Shown here one piece after another: positions 1-18,655 of a DNA stretch of 20,000 nt. The position numbers were made by a program, and so were the translations under genes. Source of the DNA: an uncultured virus (IMG/VR IMGVR_UViG_3300031823_000005). Lineage: Duplodnaviria > Heunggongvirae > Uroviricota > Caudoviricetes. Where the stretch lies: IMG/VR virus record IMGVR_UViG_3300031823_000005. One strand, written 5' to 3'. Each line of letters starts with the position of its first letter. Positions within the stretch are counted from its first letter, which is position 1. The notes under the pieces are model-generated. The model did no database searches. It saw only the letters and a list, made by a program, of their open reading frames with translations, and was not told the origin of the DNA.

Positions 1-2559
1 CGAGACGATTCTGCCCTGCGTCTGCACATTACCGGGGACACCTGAATTGTCGAAGGTCTGGCCGTGACCCGCATTCGAGTCGGCTTCGCGATAGAAATAC
101 GGGATGCCATTTCCGAGGTCGGCATTGTGCAGCGTCACGGAGCGCAAATCGCCCGAAGAACCGTTCCCGCACAATGTAGCGGTCGAGTTCCCGGCATCGC
201 ACATCGTCATCCAGTAAAGAATGTCCCACGTGGTAAGTGGGCCGTGAGCAGGACCGCCGCCTGTGGCATTGAAGTTAACGGGATAGAAGCCGATCCCTGC
301 CGTCGTTGCCGCAAGTGTCTGATTCGCTCCAGCAAGGCCGGTCACTTGCGCGGTGATGAGCGACGGAGCCACAGGCAACGCGCCATCCCAGTTCGGGATG
401 AATCCCGCGCGCGCAAAGTAGCCCATCTTATAATTTGTGTGAACAAGAGGCCCGCACACATCGCGATTGCCTTTGCCGGTGCCATTCGCGCACCACACCT
501 GATGCCAGCGAGTACGCGGCGTCTGCGTGAATGATGCGAACGAAGCAACCTGCAACGGACTGCTATTACCGACCGTTAGTTTCACGCTATACGTCTGATC
601 GCGCGCCGAACTGGTCGTCGTGGTCGAGGCCCAATCATTTTCCAGCGTGAAGCCAACTAGCGCCTGCGAGGTCGATGGGTAGAACCAAGCCTCGAACGAT
701 GGGTGAAGCGGGGGTGATCCCGTATCATTATTCGGATTCATGTCGTACGCGCGTCCGATGCGGTCTTCGAGAATGACCGCAGTGACGATCGACCCCTGTA
801 ACCAATACGTACAGAGGTGGCCACTAGTGGCGATAGCGCCGTCGATGTCGCCTCCAGAAGGTGCCGTGCAGCCCGAGCCCGATTGTGCCGCCGTCAATAT
901 CGTGCGAGCACTCGCTAATGGTGTCTGTGCACCGTTCGTCAACTGGATCTGTGCATCGAAATTGTAGTTCGCGAGCATGTTCGCGACCGTCTCGGGGCTC
1001 GTGTTATTCCCTGATGATTGGTTCACGAAATGTACGTTGACTTGCGCACTCACCGGGATGGACGCGACGACAAAGCTCGCGATGCCGTATTTCCAACTAC
1101 CATCCGGCCAGCGGTTTTTCACATCCGCCTGTGTCGTCACCAAGGAGCCCGCAATCTGCGCTTGTGGGAAGTTCGCGATGTCGCCGTCAGCCGCGACTAC
1201 CGGGACGGAATACACCTGACTCGTGATTGCCACGGACGATGAGGGATTCGTGAGCGTGACCATCGGCATTGGCTTAAACGCCCAAGCGGGTAGGCTGTAA
1301 GCGTCATCCACAACATACAGATCGTTCACGGAGTCGTAGTGGAAGCGGCCAAGAACGCCGCCAGCGGCGGGATTTGGGTCGCTACCGAAGAGGGCCGGGT
1401 AATCGACGCCCGCAGTCGAGCCGGATGAGACGGTCGTGCAGGTGATGATATTCGACGTCCGGTTCAGCGTCACATAGTAGATGGCGTTGTCCTGCCCGGT
1501 GTAGGCGATGATTACGCCGCGAGTGGAGTCCCAATCTCCACTTACTCCTCCAGTGTTGTTGACGTTGTTGCAGGAGGCGTCGATGCTAGGCACGTGCGTG
1601 GCGAAACTGTCCGCGCCGGTGAGGTCGTACCAGTGGGGACCTGCTCCGCCGTTGGCGTTACCCATGATGATAGCGATATCTTGCTTCTCGTCGATAAAAA
1701 TATGTTGAAGGTCATTCGAGCTTGGACCGAGCGCGCCGATGCGGTCAGTGTAGGCGTTCGCTACAGGATCATAGACGCTGAGGCTGGCCGAGTTCGTGTG
1801 GTCGGCAGGTTGCCAAATATAAATCTTTCCGTCCACATGATTGTACTGCGCGTATGCTTCCACGATGGTGCTGGACGTCGGGAGGTTGGCGGGCGTGAGC
1901 TGGACCCATGATGCTGAGCATCCCGTCGATGTCTCGGCATTGCACGATGCACCGATACTGGTGACGTCGAGCGCCCAGAGTTTATAGGTTCCACAAAAGT
2001 CGCCCGCCGTGTCGCCCGCGCCAACCTGCCACCGGAAGACCTTGTTCACGTTCGGCGCGTAGACGAAGAACTGGTAACTATGCCCTTGGTTGGGCGCGGT
2101 CGGATTCGACAAGGGGTCGATGTTCGTACAGGACGACGCTGGCTGACTCGGATTCGTCAGGCGCAACTTGCGACCAGGTGGCTGCCCGGTGCCATTGTTG
2201 AAAGCGGCGGATAACTCGTAGAGTTCATTCCCGGCATAGTCGCTGTGCCCGCCACCCGCTTCCAGCATGATCCCACCATCGACGGTCGGGACATAAGCCC
2301 ATGCGGTCCACGCCTTCACGACACCTTGGCAGTTGTTTGAGAAGTTGTAGCCAAATCCGCCGAAGCCGTTCGCGGGGCAGTGGTTCACGCTTCCCTGAAG
2401 CGCGGTGGACGCCGCCTCTTTCGTCCACTGTCCGGATGGGAACAAGGGCGAAGGCGCGCTCTGGGCGATGCTGATGCCAGCCGAGCCAACGACGACGCTC
2501 TGCGCGATAGTAGGAGGCGCGAATAGGAGTACGAGTAGAAGGTATCTCTTAATGTACAA
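1..2559 (-). CDS. Exported protein >853 aa, running off the left edge: signal peptide, Kelch-like beta-propeller, then RIFT/PcRGLX(YetA)-like region; putative glycan-binding or lytic receptor-binding protein
   Basis: Absent from the ORF track because it has no stop in the window. TTG start at 2559 with GGGAGG 8 nt upstream, overlapping the previous stop. Translation: MYIKRYLLLVLLFAPPTIAQSVVVG...GGGHSDYAGNELYE...GGVLGRFHYDSVND...TTQADVKNRWPDGSWKYGIASF...LHPSFEAWFYP...LVGFTLENDW. I found no in-frame stop in the stretches I translated (1-1380 and about 2215-2559); the middle was not read codon by codon but both ends are in the same frame. Confidence 0.85.
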   Translation of the reverse strand, partial: MYIKRYLLLVLLFAPPTIAQSVVVGSAGISIAQSAPSPLFPSGQWTKEAASTALQGSVNHCPANGFGGFGYNFSNNCQGVVKAWTAWAYVPTVDGGIMLEAGGGHSDYAGNELYELSAAFNNGTGQPPGRKLRLTNPSQPASSCTNIDPLSNPTAPNQGHSYQFFVYAPNVNKVFRWQVGAGDTAGDFCGTYKLWALDVTSIGASCNAETSTGCSASWVQLTPANLPTSSTIVEAYAQYNHVDGKIYIWQPADHTNSASLSVYDPVANAYTDRIGALGPSSNDLQHIFIDEKQDIAIIMGNANGGAGPHWYDLTGADSFATHVPSIDASCNNVNNTGGVSGDWDSTRGVIIAYTGQDNAIYYVTLNRTSNIITCTTVSSGSTAGVDYPALFGSDPNPAAGGVLGRFHYDSVNDLYVVDDAYSLPAWAFKPMPMVTLTNPSSSVAITSQVYSVPVVAADGDIANFPQAQIAGSLVTTQADVKNRWPDGSWKYGIASFVVASIPVSAQVNVHFVNQSSGNNTSPETVANMLANYNFDAQIQLTNGAQTPLASARTILTAAQSGSGCTAPSGGDIDGAIATSGHLCTYWLQGSIVTAVILEDRIGRAYDMNPNNDTGSPPLHPSFEAWFYPSTSQALVGFTLENDWASTTTTSSARDQTYSVKLTVGNSSPLQVASFASFTQTPRTRWHQVWCANGTGKGNRDVCGPLVHTNYKMGYFARAGFIPNWDGALPVAPSLITAQVTGLAGANQTLAATTAGIGFYPVNFNATGGGPAHGPLTTWDILYWMTMCDAGNSTATLCGNGSSGDLRSVTLHNADLGNGIPYFYREADSNAGHGQTFDNSGVPGNVQTQGRIVS

Positions 2560-3892
2560 TGGCGTTGCCTCCCAGTTTTATCGCTCCGCTTTGCAGGGTC
2601 CCTCCGGTGGTCGGGTACATGAATGTCGCCGCGAATCCGGCAATCTCGCCTGAAGTTGAGGTAGTGATGGAAGCGGTATAGCTACCCGTCGAGGTTACGA
2701 CACGAACCTCATCCGCAAGCGTAGACACCTGCGCGAGAATAGTGAAGTTCGCGCCCGCAGTGAAGGTCAATGCGTTCGCGACGCCAAACACAGCGAAAAT
2801 AATCTCATTCGCGCTGGTCGTGGACATGCTCGACGTGGTAAGCGAGGTAACGGCGAGCGTGTCGGTACAGTTTGAAGTCTGGTCAAGGACCCCTGATAAG
2901 GCTAGACCGGAAATCTCCGCGACGATAATTACTTTGTGGCTGGACGTGCCGCCGTTCGCCATTGTCACGGTATCCGTGCCGCTCGCGCCAATCTTGGCGA
3001 ATGACGCGCCGATAGTGTCGCCATCGGTCGCGAGATTGCAAGGAGCACTACCACCCGGAGTGAGTTGTGTGAATGAATCACTCCCGCCATCCGTAAAGGT
3101 GATATTGACTCCAGTGTTTAGTCCGTCGTATCCGGCGACGATGAAATAATCTCCAGCGACCTTTGGGAACGTGAGTGCTTGTGCGTTTGTCGTGGCGGTC
3201 GTGGAGCTGCTTGCGACCTGTGTGTAGTTTATCTTCGCCGTCGAGAACTCCACTGAGGAGACGCTGTACGCCGAACTCGTCGTCCAGGTGAGCGAGTTGG
3301 TTGTGGACGCTGGCGACGCCGAGGAATTGTCGAACATGGCGCCGGTAGAGACGCCGTGAAAGAGCGCGTTCTGGCGCATATTGCCAGCGGTGGCAACCGG
3401 AGTATTCCCATCGGGGAGCATGAACATCGAGACGACGGTGTTGTTGCTGGCTTGCGTTGTGGTGGAAGTAGTGCCTGATGTGCTACCAGCGGCCGAGCCC
3501 GCGACTCCGGACTGTCCGATACCCGAGTAGCCGGAACCCTCCCAAACGATCCCCTCGATCGCTGGTCCTGCAGTGAACGTCACCGTAAACGACGTGATTC
3601 CTGATGTGACGTTGCAAAGCGCGTAGATATAAGAGAACGATGATGACGCCACGGCTGGCTGTGACCGCTGCGGATAAACGACGTTGTTGTTGTCCTTGAC
3701 CGAACTGATGGTCGCCGCCGCGCTCGTCGCTACGCCAATGGCAACGCAATTTCCAGCGGTCGGGCTGTAGGTGATCGTGATGCTAGTCGCCGTTCCGGTA
3801 TTGTCGATGACCGGCGAAGACGAGCCTACGTAGGTTGCCCGCGCGGACGCGGCACAGAGAAGAAGGGTGAGAAGTGGGAGTATCTTTCTCAT
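2549..3892 (-). CDS. Exported Ser/Thr-rich 447-aa protein with two tandem homologous beta-sandwich-like domains; putative fibre-associated adhesin
   Basis: Start re-called at ATG 3892, which forms an ATGA overlap with the stop of the 2337-aa gene. This gives MRKILPLLTLLLCAASARA|TYV (basic n-region, hydrophobic core, A-x-A). Two similar halves begin TATSITITYSPTAGNCVAIGV and TTNAQALTFPKVAGDYFIVAG. Confidence 0.85.
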   Translation of the reverse strand: MRKILPLLTLLLCAASARATYVGSSSPVIDNTGTATSITITYSPTAGNCVAIGVATSAAATISSVKDNNNVVYPQRSQPAVASSSFSYIYALCNVTSGITSFTVTFTAGPAIEGIVWEGSGYSGIGQSGVAGSAAGSTSGTTSTTTQASNNTVVSMFMLPDGNTPVATAGNMRQNALFHGVSTGAMFDNSSASPASTTNSLTWTTSSAYSVSSVEFSTAKINYTQVASSSTTATTNAQALTFPKVAGDYFIVAGYDGLNTGVNITFTDGGSDSFTQLTPGGSAPCNLATDGDTIGASFAKIGASGTDTVTMANGGTSSHKVIIVAEISGLALSGVLDQTSNCTDTLAVTSLTTSSMSTTSANEIIFAVFGVANALTFTAGANFTILAQVSTLADEVRVVTSTGSYTASITTSTSGEIAGFAATFMYPTTGGTLQSGAIKLGGNAIVH

Positions 3893-6800
3893 TGTCCCGC
3901 TCTCGTGACTACCGCTTGGAGCTGATATGTTCCCGTTCCCGTCCCACAGGCCGTATACCCCGTCGCGTACTGGATGACTGAACCATTCGTCGAGATGTTG
4001 AAGTCTCCACTGCCCCACGCCGCCGCGAGCGAAGTCTGAAAGTGAAAAGTCTGTGATACGGCGTTGATCGCGGAAGCGTCGTCCATACCGAGCGAAACGG
4101 CGGAATGCGTCGTACCGTTGCTGTCCGTCCAGGTGAGAAGGAAGGTGACGCCGCCCGTTCCAGGAACCGAACACGCCGTGCCTGTCTCGATGAAGGTCCA
4201 GCTTATGTGATACTGCCCCGCGACATTGCAGGCTCCCGCGCTCGCGGCGCATAGGGTCGCAGTAGAGATAGCTCCGGTGTTCCCGGTGGAATTAATCGGC
4301 GCGGGTTGTGCGCGAATCAGCATCCCCGCCGCGGACGCGCCGTTGGTCTTCGCAAAGAACTCATGCGCCGAGGAGTCGGCGTATACGCCTGCGGTTGCCG
4401 AGACGTTCGTGAAGGCCGCGCTTTCCGCCATGCATAGGAAAGTCCCTGACCCGGTGCAGGCCGGAGCGGTCCCGGTACTGATGGAGGTCGTCGCGTTGAA
4501 ATTCGCGGCGTTAACCGTGAATGTCCCTGCGCTGGTGCCTGAGTGGCCTAGCGTGGCGACGATGGCTGCGTCATTGCCATTTCCCGGCAGCTCGCCAATA
4601 GTGAGACAGTCCTCTACGTCCGCGCTTCCATGCCATGCGCGACCGCAGATCGCCGGAATAGGGGAACCTTGACTCGTACTAGAGGTCGCCGCCGTGGTGT
4701 TCTTCCATGCGAACATCTGCGCTTCGGCAGTGGTGGTGCTGAAGATGGAGGTGTTCGCGCCCATCGTGAGGGACAGGTTCCCGGTGGGATTGACGTTGGA
4801 ATTCCACGGGATAGCAGGCAGGTCGCCCGTAGCGATGGCGCGCGGATTGTAAATGCCAGCGGTTGCCGTGGCGAAGAGCGCCTGTGTCATCGTCGTGGTT
4901 GTACTTGTGGTCGCGGCGGCGATGCTATCCGCTGCGTTCGTACGGATATGTGTGAGCTTCGCCGTGGAGTCGTAATCCACGACGCCATCGGAAGCGGCGG
5001 TTGCTCCGGCCTGCACGGGAACCTTGAACGCGCTCGCGCCGGTCGCGCCGGAGAGGTCGAGAATGCCCGCTGAGGCTGCGGTGATGGTGTTGGATGCGAA
5101 GGTGAACGGCACGACGCAGCCGAACGCGCCAGAATTGTTATATTGCAGAGCGTTCGCGGTGCCTGTGCAGGGCGTTCCGCCTCCGCCGCCACCAGTAGCG
5201 GTCTGGGGGTTCTCAAGCTGCCACTCCGTACCGTCGTAAATCACCGTGGCAATGGCGTTCGTGGTCAGGTCATTCGCGACAAGTGCGGTACTGCTACCGA
5301 ATTTTGTGATGGTCTTTGCGGTCAGGCCATTCACCGCTAGTGTTGGCGCGGAACCCGTGTTGGCTGCAACCGGGAGGAAGTTAACCTGCGTGCCGATGGT
5401 CAGAGCGGTCACGGCAGGCGTGAGCGCAACTACCTGAGCTTGGGCCGTGCCGGTCGCTGCGGCGTACCAGTTCGGCGTAATGTCGCTCGTGCCGATGAGC
5501 GAAGGAGCCGGTGCCGCACTGCTACTGGTGTTATTCCCGAGGAACTGGTGCGCGGAAAAGTTGGCGAACATCGCGCCGGACGCATTGACGCAAGTGAAAC
5601 CAGTAGTCGTAGACCAGCTCTCGATGTTCGCGCAGGTGGAGCCGAAGGACGCGAATGTCGGGACCTTGAGCGTCCACCAGTTGCCCGGAACGCTAGAACT
5701 ATCGGAGTAGACGAACGCGGCGAAGGTCGGGAGCAGCGTAGCCGAGCCACCCGTTGCGCTTCCGTCAATCTTGTCGGCGGCGTTCGCGGTCAGCGTTTCG
5801 TTCCCGCTATTTAGATTCTGGGTTACGAATTGGAAATTGGATGCCGTCGCTCCAGTAATTTGCGGGAGCGTCAGCGTGGCCGTGCTGGTCCCGCTCTCCT
5901 TGATGTAGTTGAGCCGATCACTGTAGAGAAGTGAATAATTCCCCGCCTGAGCGTTGACAGGAACGCCTTGCAATCCGCAGGTGGGATCCACCGCCGCGCC
6001 AGCGGTGACATTAAAGAACACCACACACGCGCCGTTCGTGGACGGCGAGGTGACGAGGTTCATATTGCCGGAGCCTTCCGCCACGAGCAGGGAATGCGCG
6101 GTCGGGCTGGATAGGCCCGTGCCGCCGCCAATGGGAGCAATGCGTCCGGTCAGTTCGAATATCTCCTGTCCGCCAGTGGGATTCGACGGCGTGATGGTCC
6201 CGCCGATGGCGTTCGTTGTGCTGGTGAGGAAATTGAGGGAAGTCTGCGTGATGTTATTCGTGCCGTTCGTCTGGAGGGTGATGGAGGAGCCGCCGCCGGT
6301 GGATGTCTGGGGATTCTGTAACTGCCACTCCGTACCGTCGTAGATGGCGAAGGCGATGGCGTTAGTTGTGAGGTCTCCAGCAGTCAGGGGCGTGCTATTC
6401 CCGAACTTTGTAATCGACTTGGCGGCGAGCCCGTTGACTGCGAGCGTCGGCGCGGCGCCGGTATTGGCGTTCAAGGGGAGCCAATAGGCTTGCAGACCAG
6501 CGACGAGTGAGGTAGCGGCAGGACTAAGAGTTACGGTCTGAGCCTGGGCCGTGCCGCCGCCAGCCGCATAGAGGTTCGGCGAGATGTCGTTCGTGCCGAT
6601 GGCGACGGAAGATGGAACACCAGCGGTGCTGATGGCGTTAATCCACTGGTGCGCGACCGCTGTGTAGGATTCAATCCCACCGAGCGTGGATGCGGTCGGT
6701 GTCGGGAGTTGCGCGGCGGAGGCGACGCCAGCGAGATTTGTGAAGGATGGCTGCGCGCAGGCAGCTTGAGTGGTCGCGGTCGCGGGAGTGTTGACGAACT

Positions 6801-9800
6801 GATTCGCGGCACAGGCGGAACTGGACAAGCCGAAGGACACGGTTGCACCGTTCTGGCCGAACACCCATTTCTGGTTCGAGGAATCGTACCCTTCTTGGCC
6901 GCTCGTCGTGGGCGCGTATAAGGCGCTGGTCGGGAGGGTGAAGCTAACTGCCGCGCTCATGTTCTGCGCGCCAGTGGACCAAGTGTTTGCTTGATTATTA
7001 TAGACAATGGTCGCGGGAAGCTGGCCGGAGGTCGCGGAACCGAAGAGATTGCTGAATGCTGGCTGCGTGCAGGCTGCCGTCGCGGTTCCAGTCGCAGGAG
7101 TTGAAACCCATTGGTTCGCGGAGCAGGCTGCGGAGGAGAGGCCGAAGCTCACCGTTGAGCCGTTCTGGCCGAAGACCCACTTATTCGCCGTGGAATCGTA
7201 TCCCGGACGACCGTTAGCGGTGGGAGCAAGCCCCGCGCCAACTGGCATCACTGTCGTCGCGCCACTGTAGTCCCATACGTTCCCGGTCGCGATAAAATTC
7301 CCTGAAGTGTTGTTCGTCGCCGGGGTGAGAGCCGAGAATGCAGTCGCAGCGGTGGCGGAGGAAGTGATGGTGCAATTCGTCGAGACTCCCGCGCTGTCTG
7401 TGCAGGTGATTGTGATGTTCGTCCCAGGGATAAAATTAATAGCGGGCTCTTGCGTCTGCGAAGTTCCGTTGTTCTTTACCGTCTGGTAGAAGGACGCGGA
7501 AGCTGGGCAGCCGGAAGTGGTCGCGCCGCCGAGGGCGTCCGTGCAGAGGGAGGCTCCGGTGCCGGAGACGGTCCCGGCGGAGAGCACTTTCGTGTCGGTG
7601 CCTTGGACGCCGGTGCCGGAAATGGTGCCGTTAAGCACGGGGGAGGTGAGAATCTTGAGGGTGAGCGTATCTGGGGAGTTCCGGTAGACGAACGTATCGT
7701 TGACGTCTTGCAAAGCTTGCGCACGATTCGCAGTGAACGTGCCAGAAATCACATCCTTAAACCCACCACCAAGAATATTTAACGCGAAAGTTCCGATACC
7801 ACCAGATCCAAGCGTTGAAGATCCTGCTCGATTGCTCGTTGGAATACTTTGGCCACATCCAAAAGCAAAAGTGTCAACATAATTGGCTCCGAATGGAAGG
7901 AAAGCAGTACCACTACATCCCACTGGTATATTTGCAAGAGCACATCCACCAGTTAACACACTGCAACGATACGGTTTCCATCCAACTGCCCCAACCGGAG
8001 CGGCCGGAGGAGTTACAGTAATAGTTTGGGTTCCCGGAGTTGGAGTGACTTGATTCGAAGCCGGCCCTACAGAACTTTCGTTTCCGTTAACGTCTTCTAC
8101 TGTTACATAGTAAAAAATATTTCCGGCGTTTGTTGGTACACTTCCACCAGAACTAAGCGCAATTGTCGAAGCCACATTGTTCTGAATCGGGTATATAAAC
8201 TCACCAGCACCATTCACAGCTACAGCGTTGTTAGAAAAATATGCTCCAACAATAGAACCAGAGTTTTGGCCGGAAGCTGTTCCCGTAACACTCGCTACAG
8301 GATATCCAGTCATATTTCCATAGCCTATTCCGGCACCAAAAGTAATTCCGTTAAACACCACATTGATATCCGCGCAAGGATCGAGATTTTCAAAAATATT
8401 CATCTGCGTCGTATCCATCTCGACTTGCGTAAGAAGAACGTTTCCACCAACACAACCACCGCCTATGTGCGGAGCAAACGTGAGGAACGGTGTAATTCCA
8501 CCTTGTACGTGATTGATGCCAGTAACCTGAACCTGAATGCCAGCGGATGACCCAATGTAGTAAATCCCGCGGTCCTGAACAGACATATTGTTGAAAGTTA
8601 TATCCCCAACATTCAGGATGGCTGCGGGAGTAGAAGTGGATCCGATAAAACCACTGCCTGCCTGACCGGGACCAGAGTTCAAAGCAATGTGATCAAGGTC
8701 ATACCAAAAGCCGCCGCGCATCTGAAGAGGCGTGCTCATGTAATCTGTTGGCGACTGATCATCAAAATTTAGATTTTTGAAATGTCCTTGAGATCCCCCA
8801 TTATCTACAAATAAACCAGTTCCACCATTTCCGTCGATTAGGTACCTGATCCCTTCTTGATAATTGAAACCCTGCCCATCAATCACACCAGGATTAGCAC
8901 GATGAGATTCGATAGTTCCGCCAGTTACCCATCCAAAAGATGAAGCGTCAAATGCCTGTGGCCCATTAAGCCCATAGAAACGCAACCCCTGACCGAACAA
9001 CGTTTCATTGAGATAAAGATTGGCGCCGGCCAACGCAAAAGACGGACCGAACGGAATATTTGTAAAAGAATTGACGACATATCCTCCTGGCGGAAAATAA
9101 ACAAGTCCATCACTTCCAACAGCGGTAGCTGCTGCCAAGAGACCTGGACCATCGTCAAAAAGGATTGTCTGATTTGTTGCCGGAGTAGTTGCGGGATTCG
9201 CAACAACAAGATTAACCGTTCCTGCTCCAGAAACGATCGTTGTTGTTAAAGGACGAGGGAATGAAGCAACTGGAGGTGTCGATGGCAACCAAAAAGGAAA
9301 CAACTGGCCAGCCATCATCGTTGATCCCCAATCCTCCCAAGAAGTAATCGTGAATCCACCACCAGGATTATTTACAGGACTAGTGAAAACAGGAGACAAA
9401 CTTCCACTTATTCTTCCATAACCAAAATAACGATAGGCTCCAGCGGTAGCAGACCAACTAACCTCATTTCCAACCCAATAAAAACCGGTTCCACCTCCTT
9501 GACTTACGGACGGCGCACCTAGAGCTACTTGATTCCCTGTTACATACGTAAATGTAGTTCCGCCAGTTACGGTAATTACATACCAACCACCAAAAAAATT
9601 TGCATCAGGAGTTGTCGACGTACTGATATAAATACGCGCTCCGGTGGCAAGTGCGGCAGTAGAAGAAGTTGTGGCCGTAACCACATTCCCAGATTGCGTG
9701 AATCCTGTAATAGTAAAATTATGAGCCCCGAGTGAAGCTGCTCCGGTAGAAGTAGAAGCTATTGCGCTTGCCGCAGGATAACATCCAAAAAAATCAACCG

Positions 9801-10902
9801 GTAATACAGCATAGCTGTACGATGTGGATCCTGCCGGCGCCGGAACTACGAGCCCCGTACCAGTAGGACCAGCAGCAAGTACAGGAGTAACTGTCACCCC
9901 GGTCGTAGATGAAAGTCCGCAAGCCGCACCAGCACCATAAATCGTTACACCATCTCCATTTTGAAAAGTACTTGCGGAAGAAAGAACAACGTTAGTGCCA
10001 GTGACACTAGCGAGGACACCCGGGATCTGAGGAGCAACATTAACGTTAACTGATCTCACGCCATAACTAGTGACGTCCGTATAAGGATTAGGACCAAGAA
10101 AACGTGAATTCGTTCCAACGATGAAATTCGTTCCGTCATCCGACTCCGCGGTAGGCGCAAAAAGACCACCACCACCATTCTTCTGAAGAATGTTTACGTT
10201 TCCAGTTGGAGGAGCTCCACCACTTCCACCGCCGCCAACACCTTGCCAATTCACACCATCGTAAAGAAACTCGATGTTGTTACAATTCCCAGATCCAGTT
10301 TGAAAAATAAATCCAACCGGAAGAACGAAATTCGTTGGAAAAACAAACGTGTGCCCACCAACACTGTCCTGACACAAAGAAACAGCAGTGAAAGCCCCAG
10401 GAGACGGAGACCCACTTATCGTTGAACTGATCACATTGCCAGTCAAAACCATTTTGAAAAAAGTATTCGGAAGAAAAGAAAAATTCGGAGTCGAAGAGAA
10501 GCTTAACGCTGAATAATTGAACGTCGTTGTTACGTTACTCGGCAGATTAGGAAGCGTGACATCGTTTTGAGTGTAGGTTCCACCAGTCGATGAAGTGACC
10601 TGGATAACGTAATTTCCGGCCGTAGCATAAAAAAAGTAGTTCCCATTCACATCAGCAGTGAATGGATTCGCAAGAGGGATCGTCTCAAAAGAATCTCCCC
10701 AAATATTCGCCAAAGGAGTACACGGAAGTCCAACAGCCCCATTCTGGCAAACCCGAATAGAAGCATTCGGAATAGGAGAAAAGAAACCACCAACATTCTG
10801 AAGAGCAACATCGTCTTTTCTTGTTCCGGTCTGAGCAAAACAAGAAGAGACCATCATCAAAAACAAGACAGACAGATACGCAATCCTCTTACGAAGTCCC
10901 AT
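3889..10902 (-). CDS. Giant 2337-aa tail fibre/tailspike-like protein with signal peptide, pectin-lyase-like beta-helix region and internal repeats
   Basis: GGGAG RBS. N-terminus MGLRKRIAYLSVLFLMMVSSCFA|Q. Virion-anchor-like segment 'LANPFTADVNGNYFFYATAGNYVIQV'. Pectate_lyase_3-type motif 'DDGPGLLAAATAVGSDGLVYFPPGGY'. Fibre motif 'DTLTLKILTSPVLNGT'. G/S/T/A-rich, and located downstream of head and adaptor genes. Confidence 0.85.
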   Translation of the reverse strand: MGLRKRIAYLSVLFLMMVSSCFAQTGTRKDDVALQNVGGFFSPIPNASIRVCQNGAVGLPCTPLANIWGDSFETIPLANPFTADVNGNYFFYATAGNYVIQVTSSTGGTYTQNDVTLPNLPSNVTTTFNYSALSFSSTPNFSFLPNTFFKMVLTGNVISSTISGSPSPGAFTAVSLCQDSVGGHTFVFPTNFVLPVGFIFQTGSGNCNNIEFLYDGVNWQGVGGGGSGGAPPTGNVNILQKNGGGGLFAPTAESDDGTNFIVGTNSRFLGPNPYTDVTSYGVRSVNVNVAPQIPGVLASVTGTNVVLSSASTFQNGDGVTIYGAGAACGLSSTTGVTVTPVLAAGPTGTGLVVPAPAGSTSYSYAVLPVDFFGCYPAASAIASTSTGAASLGAHNFTITGFTQSGNVVTATTSSTAALATGARIYISTSTTPDANFFGGWYVITVTGGTTFTYVTGNQVALGAPSVSQGGGTGFYWVGNEVSWSATAGAYRYFGYGRISGSLSPVFTSPVNNPGGGFTITSWEDWGSTMMAGQLFPFWLPSTPPVASFPRPLTTTIVSGAGTVNLVVANPATTPATNQTILFDDGPGLLAAATAVGSDGLVYFPPGGYVVNSFTNIPFGPSFALAGANLYLNETLFGQGLRFYGLNGPQAFDASSFGWVTGGTIESHRANPGVIDGQGFNYQEGIRYLIDGNGGTGLFVDNGGSQGHFKNLNFDDQSPTDYMSTPLQMRGGFWYDLDHIALNSGPGQAGSGFIGSTSTPAAILNVGDITFNNMSVQDRGIYYIGSSAGIQVQVTGINHVQGGITPFLTFAPHIGGGCVGGNVLLTQVEMDTTQMNIFENLDPCADINVVFNGITFGAGIGYGNMTGYPVASVTGTASGQNSGSIVGAYFSNNAVAVNGAGEFIYPIQNNVASTIALSSGGSVPTNAGNIFYYVTVEDVNGNESSVGPASNQVTPTPGTQTITVTPPAAPVGAVGWKPYRCSVLTGGCALANIPVGCSGTAFLPFGANYVDTFAFGCGQSIPTSNRAGSSTLGSGGIGTFALNILGGGFKDVISGTFTANRAQALQDVNDTFVYRNSPDTLTLKILTSPVLNGTISGTGVQGTDTKVLSAGTVSGTGASLCTDALGGATTSGCPASASFYQTVKNNGTSQTQEPAINFIPGTNITITCTDSAGVSTNCTITSSATAATAFSALTPATNNTSGNFIATGNVWDYSGATTVMPVGAGLAPTANGRPGYDSTANKWVFGQNGSTVSFGLSSAACSANQWVSTPATGTATAACTQPAFSNLFGSATSGQLPATIVYNNQANTWSTGAQNMSAAVSFTLPTSALYAPTTSGQEGYDSSNQKWVFGQNGATVSFGLSSSACAANQFVNTPATATTQAACAQPSFTNLAGVASAAQLPTPTASTLGGIESYTAVAHQWINAISTAGVPSSVAIGTNDISPNLYAAGGGTAQAQTVTLSPAATSLVAGLQAYWLPLNANTGAAPTLAVNGLAAKSITKFGNSTPLTAGDLTTNAIAFAIYDGTEWQLQNPQTSTGGGSSITLQTNGTNNITQTSLNFLTSTTNAIGGTITPSNPTGGQEIFELTGRIAPIGGGTGLSSPTAHSLLVAEGSGNMNLVTSPSTNGACVVFFNVTAGAAVDPTCGLQGVPVNAQAGNYSLLYSDRLNYIKESGTSTATLTLPQITGATASNFQFVTQNLNSGNETLTANAADKIDGSATGGSATLLPTFAAFVYSDSSSVPGNWWTLKVPTFASFGSTCANIESWSTTTGFTCVNASGAMFANFSAHQFLGNNTSSSAAPAPSLIGTSDITPNWYAAATGTAQAQVVALTPAVTALTIGTQVNFLPVAANTGSAPTLAVNGLTAKTITKFGSSTALVANDLTTNAIATVIYDGTEWQLENPQTATGGGGGGTPCTGTANALQYNNSGAFGCVVPFTFASNTITAASAGILDLSGATGASAFKVPVQAGATAASDGVVDYDSTAKLTHIRTNAADSIAAATTSTTTTMTQALFATATAGIYNPRAIATGDLPAIPWNSNVNPTGNLSLTMGANTSIFSTTTAEAQMFAWKNTTAATSSTSQGSPIPAICGRAWHGSADVEDCLTIGELPGNGNDAAIVATLGHSGTSAGTFTVNAANFNATTSISTGTAPACTGSGTFLCMAESAAFTNVSATAGVYADSSAHEFFAKTNGASAAGMLIRAQPAPINSTGNTGAISTATLCAASAGACNVAGQYHISWTFIETGTACSVPGTGGVTFLLTWTDSNGTTHSAVSLGMDDASAINAVSQTFHFQTSLAAAWGSGDFNISTNGSVIQYATGYTACGTGTGTYQLQAVVTRAGQ
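5181..6600 (-). repeat. Duplicated ~105-aa fibre domain, copies at ~6291-6600 and ~5181-5496 (offset 1104 nt)
   Basis: IGTNDISPNLYAAGGGTAQAQ...APTLAVNGLAAKSITKFG...YDGTEWQLQNPQT versus IGTSDITPNWYAAATGTAQAQ...APTLAVNGLTAKTITKFG...YDGTEWQLENPQT. Identical 21-mer ctgccactccgtaccgtcgta at 5218 and 6322. Confidence 0.92.
6733..7224 (-). repeat. Duplicated ~60-aa Cys-pair unit, copies at 7045-7224 and 6733-6912 (offset 312 nt)
   Basis: PTANGRPGYDSTANKWVFGQNGSTVSFGLSSAACSANQWVSTPATGTATAACTQPAFSNL versus PTTSGQEGYDSSNQKWVFGQNGATVSFGLSSSACAANQFVNTPATATTQAACAQPSFTNL. Confidence 0.92.
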
Positions 10903-10910
10903 AAATCTCC

Positions 10911-11471
10911 CTACTGTTGCCAGAAAGAAGCCAAATATTTGTCTGGGTTGGTTCCAACAATCCAGTACTGCCCCAAATCTTCTGGGTTCTGTCCATTCGG
11001 ACGGCGAATATACATATCCTGTGGCTGAGTACCAGCGGTCGTGAAGATCAATTTCTTTGCAGCGAAAGCTCCAGCATTCGTCAACAAACTCGATGTTCCA
11101 ACCATAATTGCCGCAGTGTTTCCATCAGCCGGCTGAATATAAATATCGTTGGCCAACGAAGCGAGACGCACAAAAGCTCCGTTCACATGAGCAAACTGCA
11201 TACCCTTAACCTGAACATGGGTACCATCGGGAACTTTCATAACCAAAACGCGCTCTTCAACGGCTGCTCCAGTACTGTCCAACATCAACCAATCACCTTG
11301 AATAAACATCGAACTGTCAGCAACAGGAAGCGTCGTCAACTGATCGCTGATGGCAATCTGTGAAGCAGACGGAGCAGGAGGATTCACCGCGGCCGTCAAC
11401 GTTGTGCCGATCAACGGTTGTGCCGTACCTGTCACCCCTAGCGTGAAATACTTGAATGCCCTGAGAGACAT
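10911..11471 (-). CDS. 186-aa hypothetical virion protein (beta-rich)
   Basis: Start overlaps the upstream stop (TAATG). 'TTLTAAV...TTLPVADSSMFIQGDWLMLD...EERVLV' resembles small beta-barrel modules of phage structural proteins. No signal peptide. Confidence 0.75.
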   Translation of the reverse strand: MSLRAFKYFTLGVTGTAQPLIGTTLTAAVNPPAPSASQIAISDQLTTLPVADSSMFIQGDWLMLDSTGAAVEERVLVMKVPDGTHVQVKGMQFAHVNGAFVRLASLANDIYIQPADGNTAAIMVGTSSLLTNAGAFAAKKLIFTTAGTQPQDMYIRRPNGQNPEDLGQYWIVGTNPDKYLASFWQQ

Positions 11472-11662
11472 TACTTGCCCCCTTTAACCTTCTCGCTTGT
11501 ATATTTGAACTCATTGAACCGACTCGGAGTAGGAGTAGGAACCTCGTGAGGCTTCCCATCCGGCCAGCTAATCGGTTTCGTATTTGTCGGCCCAACATGA
11601 GGAAGACCATGAGGAAATTTAAAATCGTGCGGGACACACTCGGAACTCTTTTTGCGGCTCAT
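11471..11662 (-). CDS. 63-aa hypothetical protein
   Basis: AGGAG RBS, with stop/start overlaps to both neighbours. Confidence 0.65.
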   Translation of the reverse strand: MSRKKSSECVPHDFKFPHGLPHVGPTNTKPISWPDGKPHEVPTPTPSRFNEFKYTSEKVKGGK

Positions 11663-11940: not shown

Positions 11941-12332
11941 GCCGCCCTCCGTCCAATAGATCCATACCTCAAACGTCTCGTTTCCCAAGAAAGCTTTGCT
12001 GACATTGAACCCAAAATACTTGGGAAAGCTTTTCTAAAACGAAGAACATCTTGGGCTATGACTTTTTTAACTCGAAGATAAGGAAGCATGAATTCAAGAA
12101 CTTTGTGAGAACTATCATCATCCTTAGCTTGAAGTTGAAGACCATTAAGCTTTCCAGGACAAATAGAAAAATAAGTCCCATGAAGCTCCAAAAAGAATTT
12201 GATCTCCTCGAGAACAGCCCGATCGTTTTGATAAAAGCAAACTCTACCGTATCCCCTCTTTTGTCCAAGAGGCGGATTGACAGTTCCTTCACCATCAAAA
12301 AATCCAGAGACATACCCCCAATCCATCTTCAT
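11937..12332 (-). CDS. Freestanding single-motif LAGLIDADG homing endonuclease-like protein (131 aa)
   Basis: WGYVSGFFDGEGTV LAGLIDADG helix, 'YQND..VLEEIK.FL', 'LPYLRVKK'. Start re-called at 12332 (ATGA overlap, GGAG upstream). Confidence 0.85.
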   Translation of the reverse strand: MKMDWGYVSGFFDGEGTVNPPLGQKRGYGRVCFYQNDRAVLEEIKFFLELHGTYFSICPGKLNGLQLQAKDDDSSHKVLEFMLPYLRVKKVIAQDVLRFRKAFPSILGSMSAKLSWETRRLRYGSIGRRAA

Positions 12333-13306
12333 AATCCACTCCATGAATCAATATCGTGACTCTGTGTCCAATCTGCCCCAAACTGCGTAAACGGATACCT
12401 TGAAAACTCCCAACGAAGATCTTGTGGATACTGGTTGTCATCATTCCTTGCCATCTTGACAACCTCTTCGTGCTGAAGACTTAAAAAACCCTTCGCTGTG
12501 GCCGGATCGTAATACTTCGAATTCTTTCCACGGAAAACCAAAGCAAACGCAATCGCGCCGTACATAATCACGTCAGTTCGCATCCACGACGCTGGAAAAT
12601 CCTGATCGTTAACCATATCCGGAGGCTGCACGCTGGCCAGAAACGGAAACGACTGCTGAAAGGTAGGCGCCGGGTAAAGCTCGAACAGCGGACTCCCATC
12701 TACGGGAGAAGGCGCATAATTTGAAACCAAATACGTCCAACCTGTCGTCGTCCTCCAGGTGTCATAAATATTCAGAACTTCTTGAGGAATGTGAAGCTTC
12801 ATCCGATACCCTTGACGTTGATTCACTACCGCCAAAAGTTTCTTGATATTGTTCCCAAAACTCACGATGTTCTGAAAAATCATGTAGCTTACGGTCGACT
12901 GTGACGGCCCTCCCCAAATCAAATCCAAAGTGATCTGTGTTGGCGATTGAAAACCAGCAATCCTGTAAATCGGTGTCGAGAACCCAACCCGAAAAGAACT
13001 CCCAATCATTGCTGGCGTCCAAGCCGTCCCGGTACCAGTAACAACAGCACTCCCGTTCGTTACCGCTACCGTCCCTGTCGTGTACGCATTCGGAACGTTT
13101 ACCTGTCCTTTCTGAAGAAGCCCATACCAAAGTCTCGAGTCCACCACACGCCTGTAGGCATTGTTAATGAGCTTCTGAGCCATCTGGACAGGCATATCCG
13201 GATTCCACTGAAGCAATTCACCAATCATCTGGCGAAAGTTTGATTGAGTGGTTGCCGGCCGCTGCTGCGTTAGTCCTACGCCTGATCCTGGCGGTGCTAC
13301 TGGCAT
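12329..13306 (-). CDS. Head-tail adaptor / tail tubular-like protein with an inserted beta domain (325 aa)
   Basis: Helical N-terminus 'AQKLINNAYRRV', then 'ELYPAP', 'DFPASW...DVIMYGAIAFAL', typical of podophage adaptors. Insert 'YTTGTVAVTNGSAVVTGTGTAWT'. Located after the capsid genes. Confidence 0.7.
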   Translation of the reverse strand: MPVAPPGSGVGLTQQRPATTQSNFRQMIGELLQWNPDMPVQMAQKLINNAYRRVVDSRLWYGLLQKGQVNVPNAYTTGTVAVTNGSAVVTGTGTAWTPAMIGSSFRVGFSTPIYRIAGFQSPTQITLDLIWGGPSQSTVSYMIFQNIVSFGNNIKKLLAVVNQRQGYRMKLHIPQEVLNIYDTWRTTTGWTYLVSNYAPSPVDGSPLFELYPAPTFQQSFPFLASVQPPDMVNDQDFPASWMRTDVIMYGAIAFALVFRGKNSKYYDPATAKGFLSLQHEEVVKMARNDDNQYPQDLRWEFSRYPFTQFGADWTQSHDIDSWSGL

Positions 13307-13320
13307 CAGTCCCTCTCACG

Positions 13321-13769: not shown

Positions 13770-14162
13770 CTAATTCTGAATAACTTTGTAATACGTGTTG
13801 TAGTTTGGAGTCCCGCCACAACTTGCATCAGATTGAACCTTTATGGCATCTCCCGACAAGGCATGAAACGCATAAAGACCGGACTGATTAATAGTTCCTG
13901 TATGAGAACCTGCGTTGTCAGTCCAATAAACATAATTCTGAACACCCCAACCAGCAATATCCTCCACCGTAAAATCAACAACAAAATCACCATCCGCAGA
14001 AGGAGTGTAAGTTGTTACTAGGGTATTGAAACCACAAGATGATTGGCTTAATGCACTTCCGACAGCTACAACAGTTGGGCCGTACGGCCTAAACGAACAC
14101 TGCGAATAAACACCAACCGCTGTAAAAACAAAAGCTGCCAAAAAAGCAATCAACTTTTTCAT
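13770..14162 (-). CDS. 130-aa exported beta protein with four Cys
   Basis: GGAGG RBS. Signal-peptide-like MKKLIAFLAAFVFTAVGVYS|QC. AT-richer than the flanking capsid genes by eye. Confidence 0.8.
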   Translation of the reverse strand: MKKLIAFLAAFVFTAVGVYSQCSFRPYGPTVVAVGSALSQSSCGFNTLVTTYTPSADGDFVVDFTVEDIAGWGVQNYVYWTDNAGSHTGTINQSGLYAFHALSGDAIKVQSDASCGGTPNYNTYYKVIQN

Positions 14163-14218: not shown

Positions 14219-14220
14219 AT

Positions 14221-14820
14221 TTACGTCTCGATATTGATAAAGACATCTGCTGTGCCACCACCAATGGCAGTCATCAGATATCCAATCGGAGCATAGGTTG
14301 TGGTGTAGGTTCCAGCCGCAACTGTTGTAGTTAACTGCTGACCAGCCAAAGGAACAATCAAGCCTCCCGCGCCGGCCGCGCCGCCAACCACCATTGAACC
14401 GATGTTGGCCGCACCAATGAAACCAAGAACCAAAATAAAGCAATAGTTCCCATTGGTGATGTTCGGATTCAGAAGAATTCCAGCGCAACCATTAAGCGTT
14501 GCCGGAGCTTCCGAAGCCAAGGTTGTGACCACCTGGAAAGTGTTGTCCTTCCAGTAGACCGGACCCACTACAGGAGTTGGGTTGATCGTCGTCGCGTTCA
14601 TACGAACGTAACGAACTTTCCACCGACGTCCCGTTCCCGAACCAATCGTGCCGTCCGAGATATACGCAGCCTCACCTACAGGATTGCGGGCGCCGTTCGG
14701 ACTTCCGAACTGGCCCTGCCCAATAGGTAGACCACTTTGAAATGGATCGTTGACCGTCGCAACGTTTCCGGTCGAGATTTGAAGGGTTTGGATATTGCCA
14801 TCAAAGACTTCGTTTGCCAT
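14221..14820 (-). CDS. 199-aa putative capsid cement/decoration protein
   Basis: Immediately downstream of the major capsid gene with a strong GGAGG RBS. 'RRWKVRYVRM...GPVYWKD...GNYCFILVLG' resembles post-capsid cement proteins. Confidence 0.65.
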   Translation of the reverse strand: MANEVFDGNIQTLQISTGNVATVNDPFQSGLPIGQGQFGSPNGARNPVGEAAYISDGTIGSGTGRRWKVRYVRMNATTINPTPVVGPVYWKDNTFQVVTTLASEAPATLNGCAGILLNPNITNGNYCFILVLGFIGAANIGSMVVGGAAGAGGLIVPLAGQQLTTTVAAGTYTTTYAPIGYLMTAIGGGTADVFINIET

Positions 14821-14835: not shown

Positions 14836-15801
14836 TTATCCCGTAATCCCGTTGATCTGTCCGTTCAAACGGGGAGCAACGAACAGAAGGTTTCCGGCAA
14901 ATAGATACTGGCCGGCGACGTCATCCGTGTTCTGAGCTTCCTTCCAACCAGTGAAACCGAACTGGTACTTCGGAAGAGTCGAAATCCAGAACTGGATGTA
15001 CTTCGTGTTAAGGAACCACATCACTCCGGTTGGAGCGTACTGGTCAACAACGATGGAGGCACCGTTGTAACGAAGCGCCTGGAACCCGATCTTCGCAACG
15101 TCCGAAGACTCTTCCAAGAACCGCTGTTGCGGCTGAATTTTGTTCCAAAGAATGTCCCACACTGGCTGTGTGGTTGGGATCAAATCAACGTGCTCGTTTC
15201 CGAACCACGTTGATCCGTAAGCGGTCTGGACCGCTGCCAAAGACAATGTTCCGATGGCAGCGTTCTTGTAACCGTTAATTCCAACGTTGGCGCCAGAGGC
15301 GATGTCTGTACGGGTGATGCCACCGTACGTCGTGTACGTAGTCCCATCGTCCAGTGCTTCCTGCATTCCATCAAGCTGGATGATTGAACTGTTCACGCCT
15401 GTTCCATCCAGGAACAGGTCGGTTCCCAAAAGCTTTGCCATCTTGCCGGCCGCGTTGACCAACTTCGTCTCCACGTAGCTCATGGCCGCTTCCGGGCCGC
15501 GGTTCAACACGTTGTCCGTGCCGAACAAGGTTGCGTTCACGTAGTAGTACTTGATATTGACTTCAAGCGCCGTGTCCGTCTGGACATAGCTGATGTCAAA
15601 CGTACCGCCACGCGTGAACGCGCCGCCCTTCAATTCCGCATACATGATTGGATGGCGAATCGTTGTACCGCCCTCGAACCGCTCCATGTTGTTCGTCCGA
15701 AGACGAGTCAGGACCGGAGAGGACTTGTAAACGTTATCTACGAGCCTCGGGACGATGAACTTATTCGTCTTCGAGGAGATATCGTCATACGTTAAAGCCA
15801 C
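14836..15801 (-). CDS. Major capsid protein (HK97 fold, 321 aa)
   Basis: GTG start with AGGAGG RBS. 'LVDNVYKSSPVLTRL...GGTTIRHPIMY...LFLDGTG...LDGM...YGGITRT...GFQALRYNGASIVVD...MWFLNTKYI...GNLLFVAPR' is a capsid signature. Follows the scaffold gene. Confidence 0.9.
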   Translation of the reverse strand: MALTYDDISSKTNKFIVPRLVDNVYKSSPVLTRLRTNNMERFEGGTTIRHPIMYAELKGGAFTRGGTFDISYVQTDTALEVNIKYYYVNATLFGTDNVLNRGPEAAMSYVETKLVNAAGKMAKLLGTDLFLDGTGVNSSIIQLDGMQEALDDGTTYTTYGGITRTDIASGANVGINGYKNAAIGTLSLAAVQTAYGSTWFGNEHVDLIPTTQPVWDILWNKIQPQQRFLEESSDVAKIGFQALRYNGASIVVDQYAPTGVMWFLNTKYIQFWISTLPKYQFGFTGWKEAQNTDDVAGQYLFAGNLLFVAPRLNGQINGITG

Positions 15802-15953: not shown

Positions 15954-16850
15954 TTAGCCTTTACCTTCAGACCTCAACTCGGCTGCGGCTGCCATTGCTG
16001 CCGCTGAAAGCGTTGCATCCTCGGGGAGCCCATCCGGACCCTTGCCGGCCCTCCGAAGCTGAAGAGGACCAAGATCGGACGGTGCAGGAGAAGCGCCACT
16101 TCCCGGAAAATTCTTTTTTGAAAGCTCTTCTTTCACTCGCTTGTCCGTCTCGGTCTTGATCTTATTCTCAGTGCGCTTGTCATTCACAAACGCCTTGTAA
16201 GCCGTATCCAAATCCTCGATCTTGTTATCTGCTACAAACTTCGAAAAAGCTTTGCGATCGAACGGCTCACCAAACTCTTGACGGTGTTCGTAATTGAAAT
16301 CCATCATCTTCTGATTCCACTCCAAAACATTCGGGAGTGTGTCTTTCAAAAACGAACTACGTTCCTGATCAGCAAGCTTTTTTGCTTCAGCAGCTACGAT
16401 CTCACCCAACTCAGTTTTCGAAACGTAACCGCGCTTGTTGATCTCCTCCTGAACTTTCGACATCAATTTCGTTTCATCCACTTCGCCACCCCCGCCGCCA
16501 GATCCAGATCCTCCACCACCGCTCCCTTCTGCCGCTTTCCGAACCTGCTCCTCGAGATCTTTGTTTTTCTCAGAGAGTTTCTTGAACTCATCCATCAACT
16601 GAGTGTGCCGAGGCGCGTTTTCGTCATACCACTTCTGGAATTCAGCAGCTTTTTTTCTGGCAGCCAAAAGAGCTTCTTGTTCCTTTTCCCGATCCGTCTT
16701 CACTTCATTCATCTTGCGATCGTAATCGCTCTGACGGAGATACCCTTCAGAAAGAACCGGGTATTTTTCAAGAAGCTTTCTTTGTTCTTCTCTCTCTTTC
16801 TCATCCGGGATGGACGCTAAAAGATCTTCCAATTCCTTCTTCAATGCCAT
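15954..16850 (-). CDS. Capsid scaffolding protein (298 aa)
   Basis: Highly charged coiled-coil with a Gly/Ser linker, located between portal and capsid genes. AAGGAG RBS. Confidence 0.8.
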   Translation of the reverse strand: MALKKELEDLLASIPDEKEREEQRKLLEKYPVLSEGYLRQSDYDRKMNEVKTDREKEQEALLAARKKAAEFQKWYDENAPRHTQLMDEFKKLSEKNKDLEEQVRKAAEGSGGGGSGSGGGGGEVDETKLMSKVQEEINKRGYVSKTELGEIVAAEAKKLADQERSSFLKDTLPNVLEWNQKMMDFNYEHRQEFGEPFDRKAFSKFVADNKIEDLDTAYKAFVNDKRTENKIKTETDKRVKEELSKKNFPGSGASPAPSDLGPLQLRRAGKGPDGLPEDATLSAAAMAAAAELRSEGKG

Positions 16851-18445: not shown

Positions 18446-18655
18446 CTATTTGTAAATCTGTCGCGTAACCGTCTCTACTCCCGCAACTCCACCTGTCTTA
18501 AACTGAATCGTCACAGATCCAGTCTTCCTTTCCCTGATAAAACAATCGACGGCTGCAAACAGTTCTTTTGGAACAGTGACAACATCTTTTTCATCAGGAT
18601 CAACAATAACTGCCAATCCTTTAGGAATATTCGTCAAAACTTGAGGCATTGTCAT
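18446..18655 (-). CDS. 69-aa small protein, DUF2292(YezD)-like
   Basis: ATGA overlap with the portal stop. 'KTGSVTIQFKTGGVAGVETVTRQ' resembles the DUF2292 helix plus beta-hairpin pattern. Confidence 0.6.
   Translation of the reverse strand: MTMPQVLTNIPKGLAVIVDPDEKDVVTVPKELFAAVDCFIRERKTGSVTIQFKTGGVAGVETVTRQIYK

Follow-up and report, generated by a model that had tools for sequence, protein, structure and literature searches.

Introduction

To our knowledge, the particles of tailed phages are held to be built entirely in the cytoplasm, and known P22-type tailspikes fold in that compartment. P22 tailspikes add to finished heads in vitro, making late docking feasible. Here, we describe a stretch of 20,000 nucleotides (the window) from the uncultured virus IMGVR_UViG_3300031823_000005 (Caudoviricetes), which carries a cassette of three large genes whose products begin with signal-peptide-like leaders. 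An earlier note on this DNA had proposed that the phage exports these appendages for oxidative folding and attaches them at or after lysis, or alternatively displays them on the lysogen surface. We consider the cassette to be the adsorption apparatus of a short-tailed soil phage of ~100 kb, made by a two-compartment route, and give this reading a probability of about 0.65. No description of Sec-exported tailed-phage fibres was found in the literature searched, which covered few subscription journals.

The tailspikes of P22, Sf6 and Pam1 (PDB 2vnl, 7sg7, 7eeq, 8eb7) resemble the largest cassette protein, of 2337 amino acids (aa), in their N-terminal fold, in the predicted trimer and in the position after the neck genes. 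Compared with these tailspikes, the cassette family adds a leader predicted to be cleavable, an invariant Cys pair, 10-36 paired Cys per chain and a length of up to 2337 aa. The leaderless cytoplasmic synthesis of the P22 type is not shared by the window protein, which has a conserved leader. The cassette proteins would be a new form of podovirus tailspikes.

The closest experimental hint for exported proteins on tailed virions comes from Cellulophaga phages. The products of gp091-gp094 of phi10:1 and of gp085-gp087 of phi18:3, which are consecutive genes, carry Sec-type leaders in which the cleavage motif is followed by Gln; the remaining structural genes that were checked in both phages are leaderless. 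These proteins are annotated as 'structural protein, experimental MS/MS proteomics' (tandem mass spectrometry), and the GenBank notes are silent on leaders. They differ from those of the window in having only 0-3 Cys and in the Bacteroidota host, and are likened to them by leader type, not by homology.

Further parallels come from the literature. Sec-exported and signal-anchor-release endolysins are known, such as Lys44 of fOg44 and Lyz of P1, and lysis enzymes are the only tailed-phage proteins named as Sec users in the consulted sections (PMC6116005). Endolysins share with the cassette the use of host Sec for a late protein, but they are lysis enzymes and not virion parts. Soluble phage depolymerases that are set free at lysis are known as well (PMC5380687). 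WceF of Pantoea stewartii (PDB 6tgf) is a trimeric, tailspike-like enzyme that is exported through the twin-arginine translocation (Tat) pathway and works off the virion; like the cassette, it combines an export signal with a trimeric tailspike-like protein, but it is a bacterial gene product from an exopolysaccharide cluster, is exported in folded form and has no neighboring virion genes (PMC7949094). The head spike of the gene transfer agent RcGTA consists of a jelly-roll base pentamer and a head fibre, for which export is not described in the sections consulted (PMC7296036).

Results

Leader-Bearing Proteins of the Window

The three large genes lie on the minus strand where the earlier note had placed them, at 10902-3889, 3892-2549 and from 2559 to beyond the window. 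The cassette comprises the following features:

3889..10902, minus strand: tailspike or fibre protein of 2337 aa (open reading frame, leader scan, fold and trimer models)
10834..10902, minus strand: predicted Sec/signal peptidase I (SPI) signal peptide of the 2337-aa protein, aa 1-23 (leader scan, alignment, model helix 3-22)
10543..10833, minus strand: P22/Sf6/Pam1-type tailspike head-binding-like domain, aa 24-120, with Cys52-Cys61 (fold, alignment, trimer model)
2549..3892, minus strand: leader-bearing, Thr/Ser-rich protein of 447 aa with four mature Cys (open reading frame, leader scan)
1..2559, minus strand: leader-bearing protein of at least 853 aa with a TTG start and 14 Cys in the visible part (no stop inside the window)

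Stop/start overlaps had been thought to join all three genes. An ATGA overlap is found at the boundary of the 2337-aa and 447-aa genes only; the TTG start of the third gene lies 11 nt inside the 447-aa gene, with GGGAGG ahead of it. Ribosome-binding sites are present ahead of the starts.

Leaders were called with a rule of our own (basic n-region, hydrophobic core and small-residue motif, scored as the best 8-residue Kyte-Doolittle mean), not with SignalP. By this rule, and in agreement with the earlier reading, each of the three large proteins starts with a basic n-region and a hydrophobic core (2.7 in the 2337-aa protein, 2.8 in the 447-aa protein and 3.5 in the third), followed by a small-residue cleavage motif. 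A fourth leader-bearing gene had been overlooked: it encodes a 130-aa protein (core 2.9) at 14162-13770, between the 199-aa and 108-aa genes. The scan of 17 minus-strand genes thus calls four leaders. Scores of the remaining 13 are ≤ 1.7, and the core structural genes have no leader, which bears out the earlier statement that the capsid, scaffold, adaptor and decoration genes are leaderless. The rule-based scan and the alignment both show the features of Sec/SPI substrates, namely a basic n-region, an h-region and small residues at -3 and -1. None of the four window leaders has a twin-arginine motif and the neighbors are virion genes, unlike the Tat signal and exopolysaccharide-cluster location of exported glycanases such as WceF or AmsF.

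With the first 120 aa of the 2337-aa protein as query, 1,589 homolog clusters were found at E ≤ 0.001. Conservation of the leader had been suggested as a check, and a hydrophobic leader is kept in 145 of the best 150 homologs and the Cys pair in all 150. Both counts are biased upward, since leader and Cys loop were part of the query, and kinship among the sequences means that they do not count independently. Most of the five homologs without a leader look like wrongly called starts. Gln24 (the first mature residue), Cys52 and Cys61 are invariant in 27/27 aligned homologs. A Gln at +1 resembles the 'Q-rule' (pyroglutamate) known for signal peptidase I substrates in Bacteroidota. A scan of viral contigs with the adaptor alone, or with the N-terminal 120 aa alone, gave no match.

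Cysteine Content and Pairing

Of the 35 Cys in the 2337-aa protein, one lies in the leader and 34 in the mature chain, where they can be read as 17 consecutive pairs. The summed gaps within these pairs amount to 346, a value reached in 0 of 20,000 shuffles, and 27 of the 34 mature Cys have a neighbor within 20 aa (shuffle mean 14.9, p = 0.0006). At a cut-off of 12 aa the clustering is not significant (13 of 34, p = 0.21). The positions of the six Cys motifs listed in the earlier note match (52-61, 980-987, 1120-1132, 1167-1177, 2149-2157 and 2218-2225). The mature Cys of the 447-aa protein, at 49, 93, 285 and 342, are all more than 20 aa from one another.

Even Cys counts prevail in complete anchor-bearing genes, both chromosomal (65 of 70) and viral (34 of 41), and range from 8 to 32 when counted from the first Cys of the domain onward (128 hits, 17 of which were dropped as cut or motif-less). 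Among dereplicated complete proteins of at least 300 aa with at least two Cys from related phages, the count is even in 28/30 leader-bearing proteins vs. 68/128 leaderless ones. The Cys content in these relatives is 1.9% for leader-bearing and 0.8% for leaderless proteins, and fewer than two Cys are found in 3 of 33 and 81 of 209, respectively. Across the family the counts step by two, with kinship inflating the significance. The 130-aa protein, with three mature Cys, is an exception to the even-count rule. From these patterns we infer that the cysteines would behave as local disulfides. Genes of the DsbA family are present in all five Acidobacteriota genomes searched.

A Head-Binding-Like Anchor Domain Follows the Leader

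The N-terminal model of the 2337-aa protein (predicted local distance difference test, pLDDT, of 92.5) consists of a helix at residues 3-22 and a small β-domain, hereafter the anchor. In a fold comparison against 48,161 PDB representatives the five best matches are phage tail-complex chains, four of which are named tailspike N-terminal domains; the root-mean-square deviation (rmsd) over these five rows is 2.6-3.6 (one 7.2), with 77-91 residues aligned:

Pan3 tail complex: Z 8.0, rmsd 2.6, 77 residues aligned
Pam1 tailspike head-binding domain: Z 7.8, rmsd 3.0, 81 residues aligned
Sf6 gp14N: Z 7.0, rmsd 2.9, 81 residues aligned
P22 gp9N: Z 6.7 and 6.5

A search of BFVD gave 11 matches at E ≤ 0.001, of which the named ones are pectate-lyase or uncharacterised phage proteins, and the sequence profile reached Pam1 7eeq at an E-value of only 0.036. 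Three copies of the anchor are modeled as a homotrimer with a score of 0.86, against 0.01 for the best control. In all, 20 of 30 solved pairs attained the mark used, as did 1 of 23 single chains, and the trimer runs share at least 91% of their contacts at a pLDDT of at least 92. By its modeled fold the anchor is a domain predicted to work like a head-binding domain, yet by sequence it is not a member of PF09008 (Head_binding).

Weak anchor homologs (35-40% identity, E 6e-4 to 0.4) are found in four cultured phages out of five distinct phages listed: Sulfitobacter phage phiGT1, Oceanospirillum phage GJ44, Idiomarinaceae phage 1N2-2 and Pseudomonas phage KT1. These proteins begin directly at the domain, and three are annotated as tail spike or tail fibre. 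They resemble the anchor, but have no leader and no Cys in the domain, which suggests that the leader and the Cys loop were added onto an ordinary anchor. A word-index search for shorter anchor homologs yielded four proteins, too few to serve as a leaderless control.

Stalk, Neighboring Cassette Proteins and the 186-aa Protein

Behind the anchor, the first 900 aa of the 2337-aa protein probably hold a β-helix region, judging from the sequence: in two chromosomal homologs PF12708 (a pectate-lyase-like start) follows the anchor at E 2e-6 and 5e-5. In the window protein itself, the Atlas leads for a β-helix are all under 0.9 and there is no PDB sequence hit. The remainder is a long Thr/Gly/Ala-rich mosaic stalk with Cys pairs, and a C-terminal domain that is common to other leader-bearing or head-module proteins of relatives. 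The same C-terminal domain (66%) and a stalk segment occur in a 469-aa gene adjoining head genes in a related locus (L068:12087-13496), for which a leader was not called. A suspicion that this domain also exists as a free copy, in the form of the 130-aa protein, was not supported (E 0.61). Homologs of the 130-aa protein are found in three related loci, two with a leader as called.

The 2337-aa and 447-aa proteins match no family in Pfam or PHROGs, and the third protein, scanned against PHROGs only, matches no PHROG family and nothing in the PDB. PDB sequence searches with the cassette proteins were empty or at chance level, and Atlas leads stayed under 0.9. The 447-aa protein probably has two β-domains; for the third, a sugar-binding or sugar-cutting role is a guess. 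The description of the cassette products as fibre or receptor-binding proteins, made in the earlier note, is supported for the 2337-aa protein by its head-binding-like fold and trimer model; for the other two it was drawn from position only.

The gene directly upstream encodes a leaderless, Cys-free 186-aa protein (minus strand, 10911..11471), which is modeled as a single jelly-roll with an inserted β-barrel and matches P1 of PM2 (Z 8.4) and chain Y of SH1 (Z 7.9). Among 20 loci, the gene directly after the homolog of the 186-aa gene is leader-bearing in 11, a conserved leaderless structural gene in seven and ambiguous in two; the leader-bearing products often have a Gly-rich mature N-terminus. 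As with RcGTA, a small jelly-roll protein is encoded ahead of a fibre-like gene, but the 186-aa protein has the inserted barrel, and the RcGTA base is absent among the listed fold matches. By this analogy, we would guess that the 186-aa protein is a candidate docking base made in the cytoplasm.

Leader-Bearing Fibre Genes in Related Phages

In the protein collection, 704 relatives of the capsid protein are found, and a search with it led to 73 viral loci. Among 50,697 GenBank phages it matches three records only, at 26-29% identity, and there is no close cultured member among them. Two relatives with terminal repeats are complete: G001 (101.8 kb, 84% capsid identity) and G003 (103.7 kb). In both, the terminase, portal, capsid, adaptor, a nozzle-like gene of 1050-1100 aa and large ejection-like genes are leaderless, and every recognisable large fibre-like gene carries a leader. 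G001 has four leader-bearing, Cys-rich genes (735-3155 aa) with the 186-aa homolog among them, and G003 has seven consecutive ones; this block stands apart from the head genes. Leaders were confirmed in G001-G005 and G614, and not in G611 and G612.

With the anchor profile, matches were obtained in 8 of 10 records from two clades, that of the window and a second one (4 of 4 of those at least 90% complete), and in none of the five records of sister clades with leaderless fibre genes. In other podophage layouts (L195, L197, L198), too, the tailspike position is taken by a leader-plus-anchor gene. L009, L011, L015, L016, L041, L017, L036 and L040 represent sister clades that have leaderless fibres and share the capsid family at 64-74% identity; here a host switch coupled to a switch in fibre biogenesis is possible. 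Leader labels taken from 10-kb flanks on the tree of the major capsid protein are unreliable, as the cassette may sit elsewhere in the genome.

Several other genes of the relatives were noted. The largest leader-bearing protein of G001 (G001:C1:24644-34111, 3155 aa) has 100 Cys in its mature chain, and its C-terminal part gives a hydrolase-like match (phrog_18474, E 6e-19). Lipoprotein-like genes lie near a SleB-type endolysin gene at G001:C1:77714-78352, at G002:C1:8066-8683 and, in a chromosomal cluster, at L304:14045-14743; one has a twin-arginine-like start, and they may encode a spanin, although the likeness was seen by eye and tblastn gave no link. A Ro60/TROVE-like RNA-binding gene (phrog_850) is present at G001:C1:46678-48336 and G003:C1:34215-35567. 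G003 has glycosyltransferase genes between the neck and nozzle genes, and G001 and G003 have many HNH genes.

A Leader-Plus-Anchor Gene in Acidiferrales Chromosomes

A search of GTDB genomes with a query built from the Acidiferrales subgroup itself gave 305 locations of a leader-plus-anchor gene; 80 were kept, of which 77 are labeled Acidobacteriota, mostly Acidiferrales. In a phylum-wide sample the anchor profile was found in 2 of 401 Acidobacteriota genomes (seven candidates scored in each) and is not phylum-wide there. The chromosomal gene sits in a conserved, single-copy virion gene cluster (L074-L153; L302-L313; G006, G007, G009, G010), with a capsid family other than that of the window. 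The cluster contains genes for a terminase (phrog_979), a portal-like protein, the capsid (phrog_14242), the leader-plus-anchor tailspike, an adaptor, and nozzle-like and small ejection-like proteins; in G007 it also has an endolysin gene, and host genes are interleaved on the opposite strand. Its capsid gene is present in 123 of 201 Acidiferrales genomes (118 of 196 without five unpublished genomes), and over 60 full-length chromosomal loci the synteny extends to the capsid in 58, the adaptor in 60 and the nozzle in 50. The cluster looks like a gene transfer agent candidate. A DsbA-family gene (CPHC motif) and nadE flank its downstream end in three of four regions (L307:749-1642, L304:15829-16737, G009:C4:373362-374180), which may be just host flank.

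Gene Organization and Source of the Window

The minus strand of the window carries a podovirus-type morphogenesis module, in which the leader-bearing large genes come last. The gene order is portal, scaffold, capsid, 199-aa, 130-aa, 108-aa, adaptor, three small genes and 186-aa, and beyond it the genes for the 2337-aa, 447-aa and at least 853-aa proteins. Further features are:

18652..19995, minus strand: C-terminal part of the portal protein (PF16510 E 6e-10, PF23899 E 2e-9, phrog_156)
15954..16850, minus strand: probable scaffold protein (position and composition)
14836..15801, minus strand: major capsid protein, leaderless, no Cys (phrog_9953 E 4e-37)
14221..14820, minus strand: leaderless gene of 199 aa that follows the capsid gene, probably for a decoration protein (by position alone)
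13770..14162, minus strand: the 130-aa fourth leader-bearing protein, in the head module, three mature Cys (leader scan, homolog loci)
12329..13306, minus strand: SU10-type head-tail adaptor, leaderless, no Cys (PF24175 E 5e-6)
10911..11471, minus strand: the 186-aa protein described above (structure model, conservation)
7700..7850, no strand assigned: sharp step in G + C content inside the 2337-aa gene, from ~46% to 61% (GC profile)

Within the module there are two LAGLIDADG/HNH-type homing endonuclease genes, at 11937-12344 and 17670-18146. The window DNA is present in three soil metagenome runs, and no RNA run is listed as carrying the DNA. A contig of run X1 covers 2670-20000 without differences, and this run may itself be the source of the window sequence. 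Because this single contig spans the GC step, we read the step as a natural recombination joint, by which the distal stalk and both genes after it were probably acquired and, by the look of it, recently. Beyond the window end at the gene for the at least 853-aa protein, the contig with that gene continues for a further 2,209 bases.

Discussion

Export of the cassette proteins with disulfide formation, as the earlier note had proposed, is very probable, backed as it is by the conserved leaders, the excess of even Cys counts in leader-bearing proteins and the leaderless homologs that lack the Cys pair. Their attachment to particles at or after lysis appears likely, at a lower confidence than export itself. 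In the proposed route, head, neck and nozzle would be built in the cytoplasm as usual, their genes being leaderless, while the fibre and tailspike proteins would pass the host Sec channel and be cut by signal peptidase I. In the periplasm, the exported proteins would then fold, trimerise and acquire local disulfides, as the Cys pairing and parity suggest. Once the inner membrane is broken at lysis, or after release, the trimer would dock on the particle via its head-binding-like domain; more speculatively, the remaining exported proteins might join through the stalk or the leaderless 186-aa jelly-roll protein.

Several observations weigh against this route. The margin of the fold comparison is small, as the next matches, at Z 6.5-5.9, are unrelated domains from secreted proteins (transthyretin-like and pilin). 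Foldseek gave no match in the PDB at E ≤ 0.001 for the anchor model, and the anchor matches neither PF09008 nor any other Pfam family at E ≤ 0.1; PF09008 has no match in any of five relatives either. The trimer pass could stem from the solved P22-type trimers and is silent on particle docking. In G001, G002 and G003 the anchor gene is distant from the morphogenesis genes. The absence of fibre or spike PHROG matches (E ≤ 1e-4) among 97 leaderless proteins of at least 140 aa from G001 and G003 speaks for the route, but this test is weak: most leader-bearing fibres escape PHROGs too, and proteins longer than 2000 aa, spanning region borders or within the final few kb lay outside it. The Cellulophaga proteins may have been co-purified with the virions. 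On the host side, VKOR was not found in any of the five genomes searched, a search that did not extend to DsbB. The host is probably a member of the Acidobacteriota, the sole basis being the anchor domain shared with Acidiferrales. The upward bias of the homolog counts belongs here as well.

The main alternative, though an unlikely one, is that the proteins are exported but act off the particle, as soluble depolymerases, lectins or decoys that are stored in the periplasm and freed at lysis. They could loosen capsule or biofilm or occupy receptors, with the anchor kept as a trimerisation module, as in WceF. WceF appears in our fold list at Z 5.4; as an exported tailspike-like trimer active off the virion, it also counts against the two-compartment route (PMC7949094), and depolymerases freed at lysis offer a precedent (PMC5380687). 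The anchor fold is frequent among secreted proteins, and the cassette is variable and can sit away from the tail genes. Yet if this alternative held, two complete genomes would lack any fibre that we could recognise (a weak test), and long-stalked proteins of 1000-3155 aa would better suit a tethered appendage. In addition, the tailspike position is kept within virion operons of several lineages, and leader-bearing proteins are present in Cellulophaga virion preparations.

That infected or carrier cells display the proteins on their surface, as adhesins or for superinfection exclusion, is improbable. Leaders and disulfides are typical of surface proteins and would fit such a role, as would the vertically inherited chromosomal copy in Acidiferrales and a ParB-like gene in one relative, which makes a plasmid-like carrier state possible. 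The lysogen-surface display offered as an alternative in the earlier note is nevertheless weakened. No tyrosine integrase (PF00589) was found in five relatives, four of them at least 90% complete, in a search that did not cover serine integrases, and the window's capsid family was found in just 1 of 401 Acidobacteriota genomes, weakly, so that a prophage with it is absent in 400; together these favor a non-integrating phage. No lipobox is apparent in the cassette proteins, nor does hydropathy show a membrane anchor: the highest 19-residue value is ≤ 1.55 for the three large proteins of the window and ≤ 1.97 in 11 relatives. The cassette genes also overlap and come after late genes.

Still less probable is that uncleaved leaders tether the fibre subunits to the inner membrane, with their bulk in the cytoplasm and disulfides formed only in air after lysis. 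The leaders were scored by a simple rule, and signal-anchor-release domains do occur in phage endolysins (PMC6116005). Against this, the short h-regions, the small-residue motif and the invariant Gln at +1 fit cleavage, and Cys parity is limited to the leader-bearing proteins. A basic n-region places the remaining chain outside, and would do so here. An artefact (chance hydrophobic N-termini, wrong starts or a chimeric assembly), to which the GC step in the large gene and the TTG start of the third gene might point, is largely refuted by the leader kept in homologs, the ribosome-binding sites, the contig across 2670-20000 (possibly from the source run) and the same layout in complete relatives.

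If the appendages are exported and added at lysis, this would be a second virion assembly route, new for tailed phages. Fibres that are very long, mosaic and stabilised by disulfides would become possible, and infectivity would depend on the Sec and Dsb factors of the host. Genes with leaders, which are often taken for host-like extras in viral metagenomes, would then be structural. With phi10:1 and phi18:3, cultured phages are available for testing this, and a single-copy version exists in Acidiferrales. As a wider and tentative proposal, unrelated Acidobacteriota podophages and the gene transfer agent-like element of Acidiferrales might all make bald particles in the cytoplasm and receive all appendages from a periplasmic pool at or after lysis, with maturation in need of Sec and Dsb. 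Particle maturation would then be an extracytoplasmic step dependent on these host systems, and, because the anchor domain is common to both, a phage might take spikes from a co-resident element and so alter its host range without a change in its genome.

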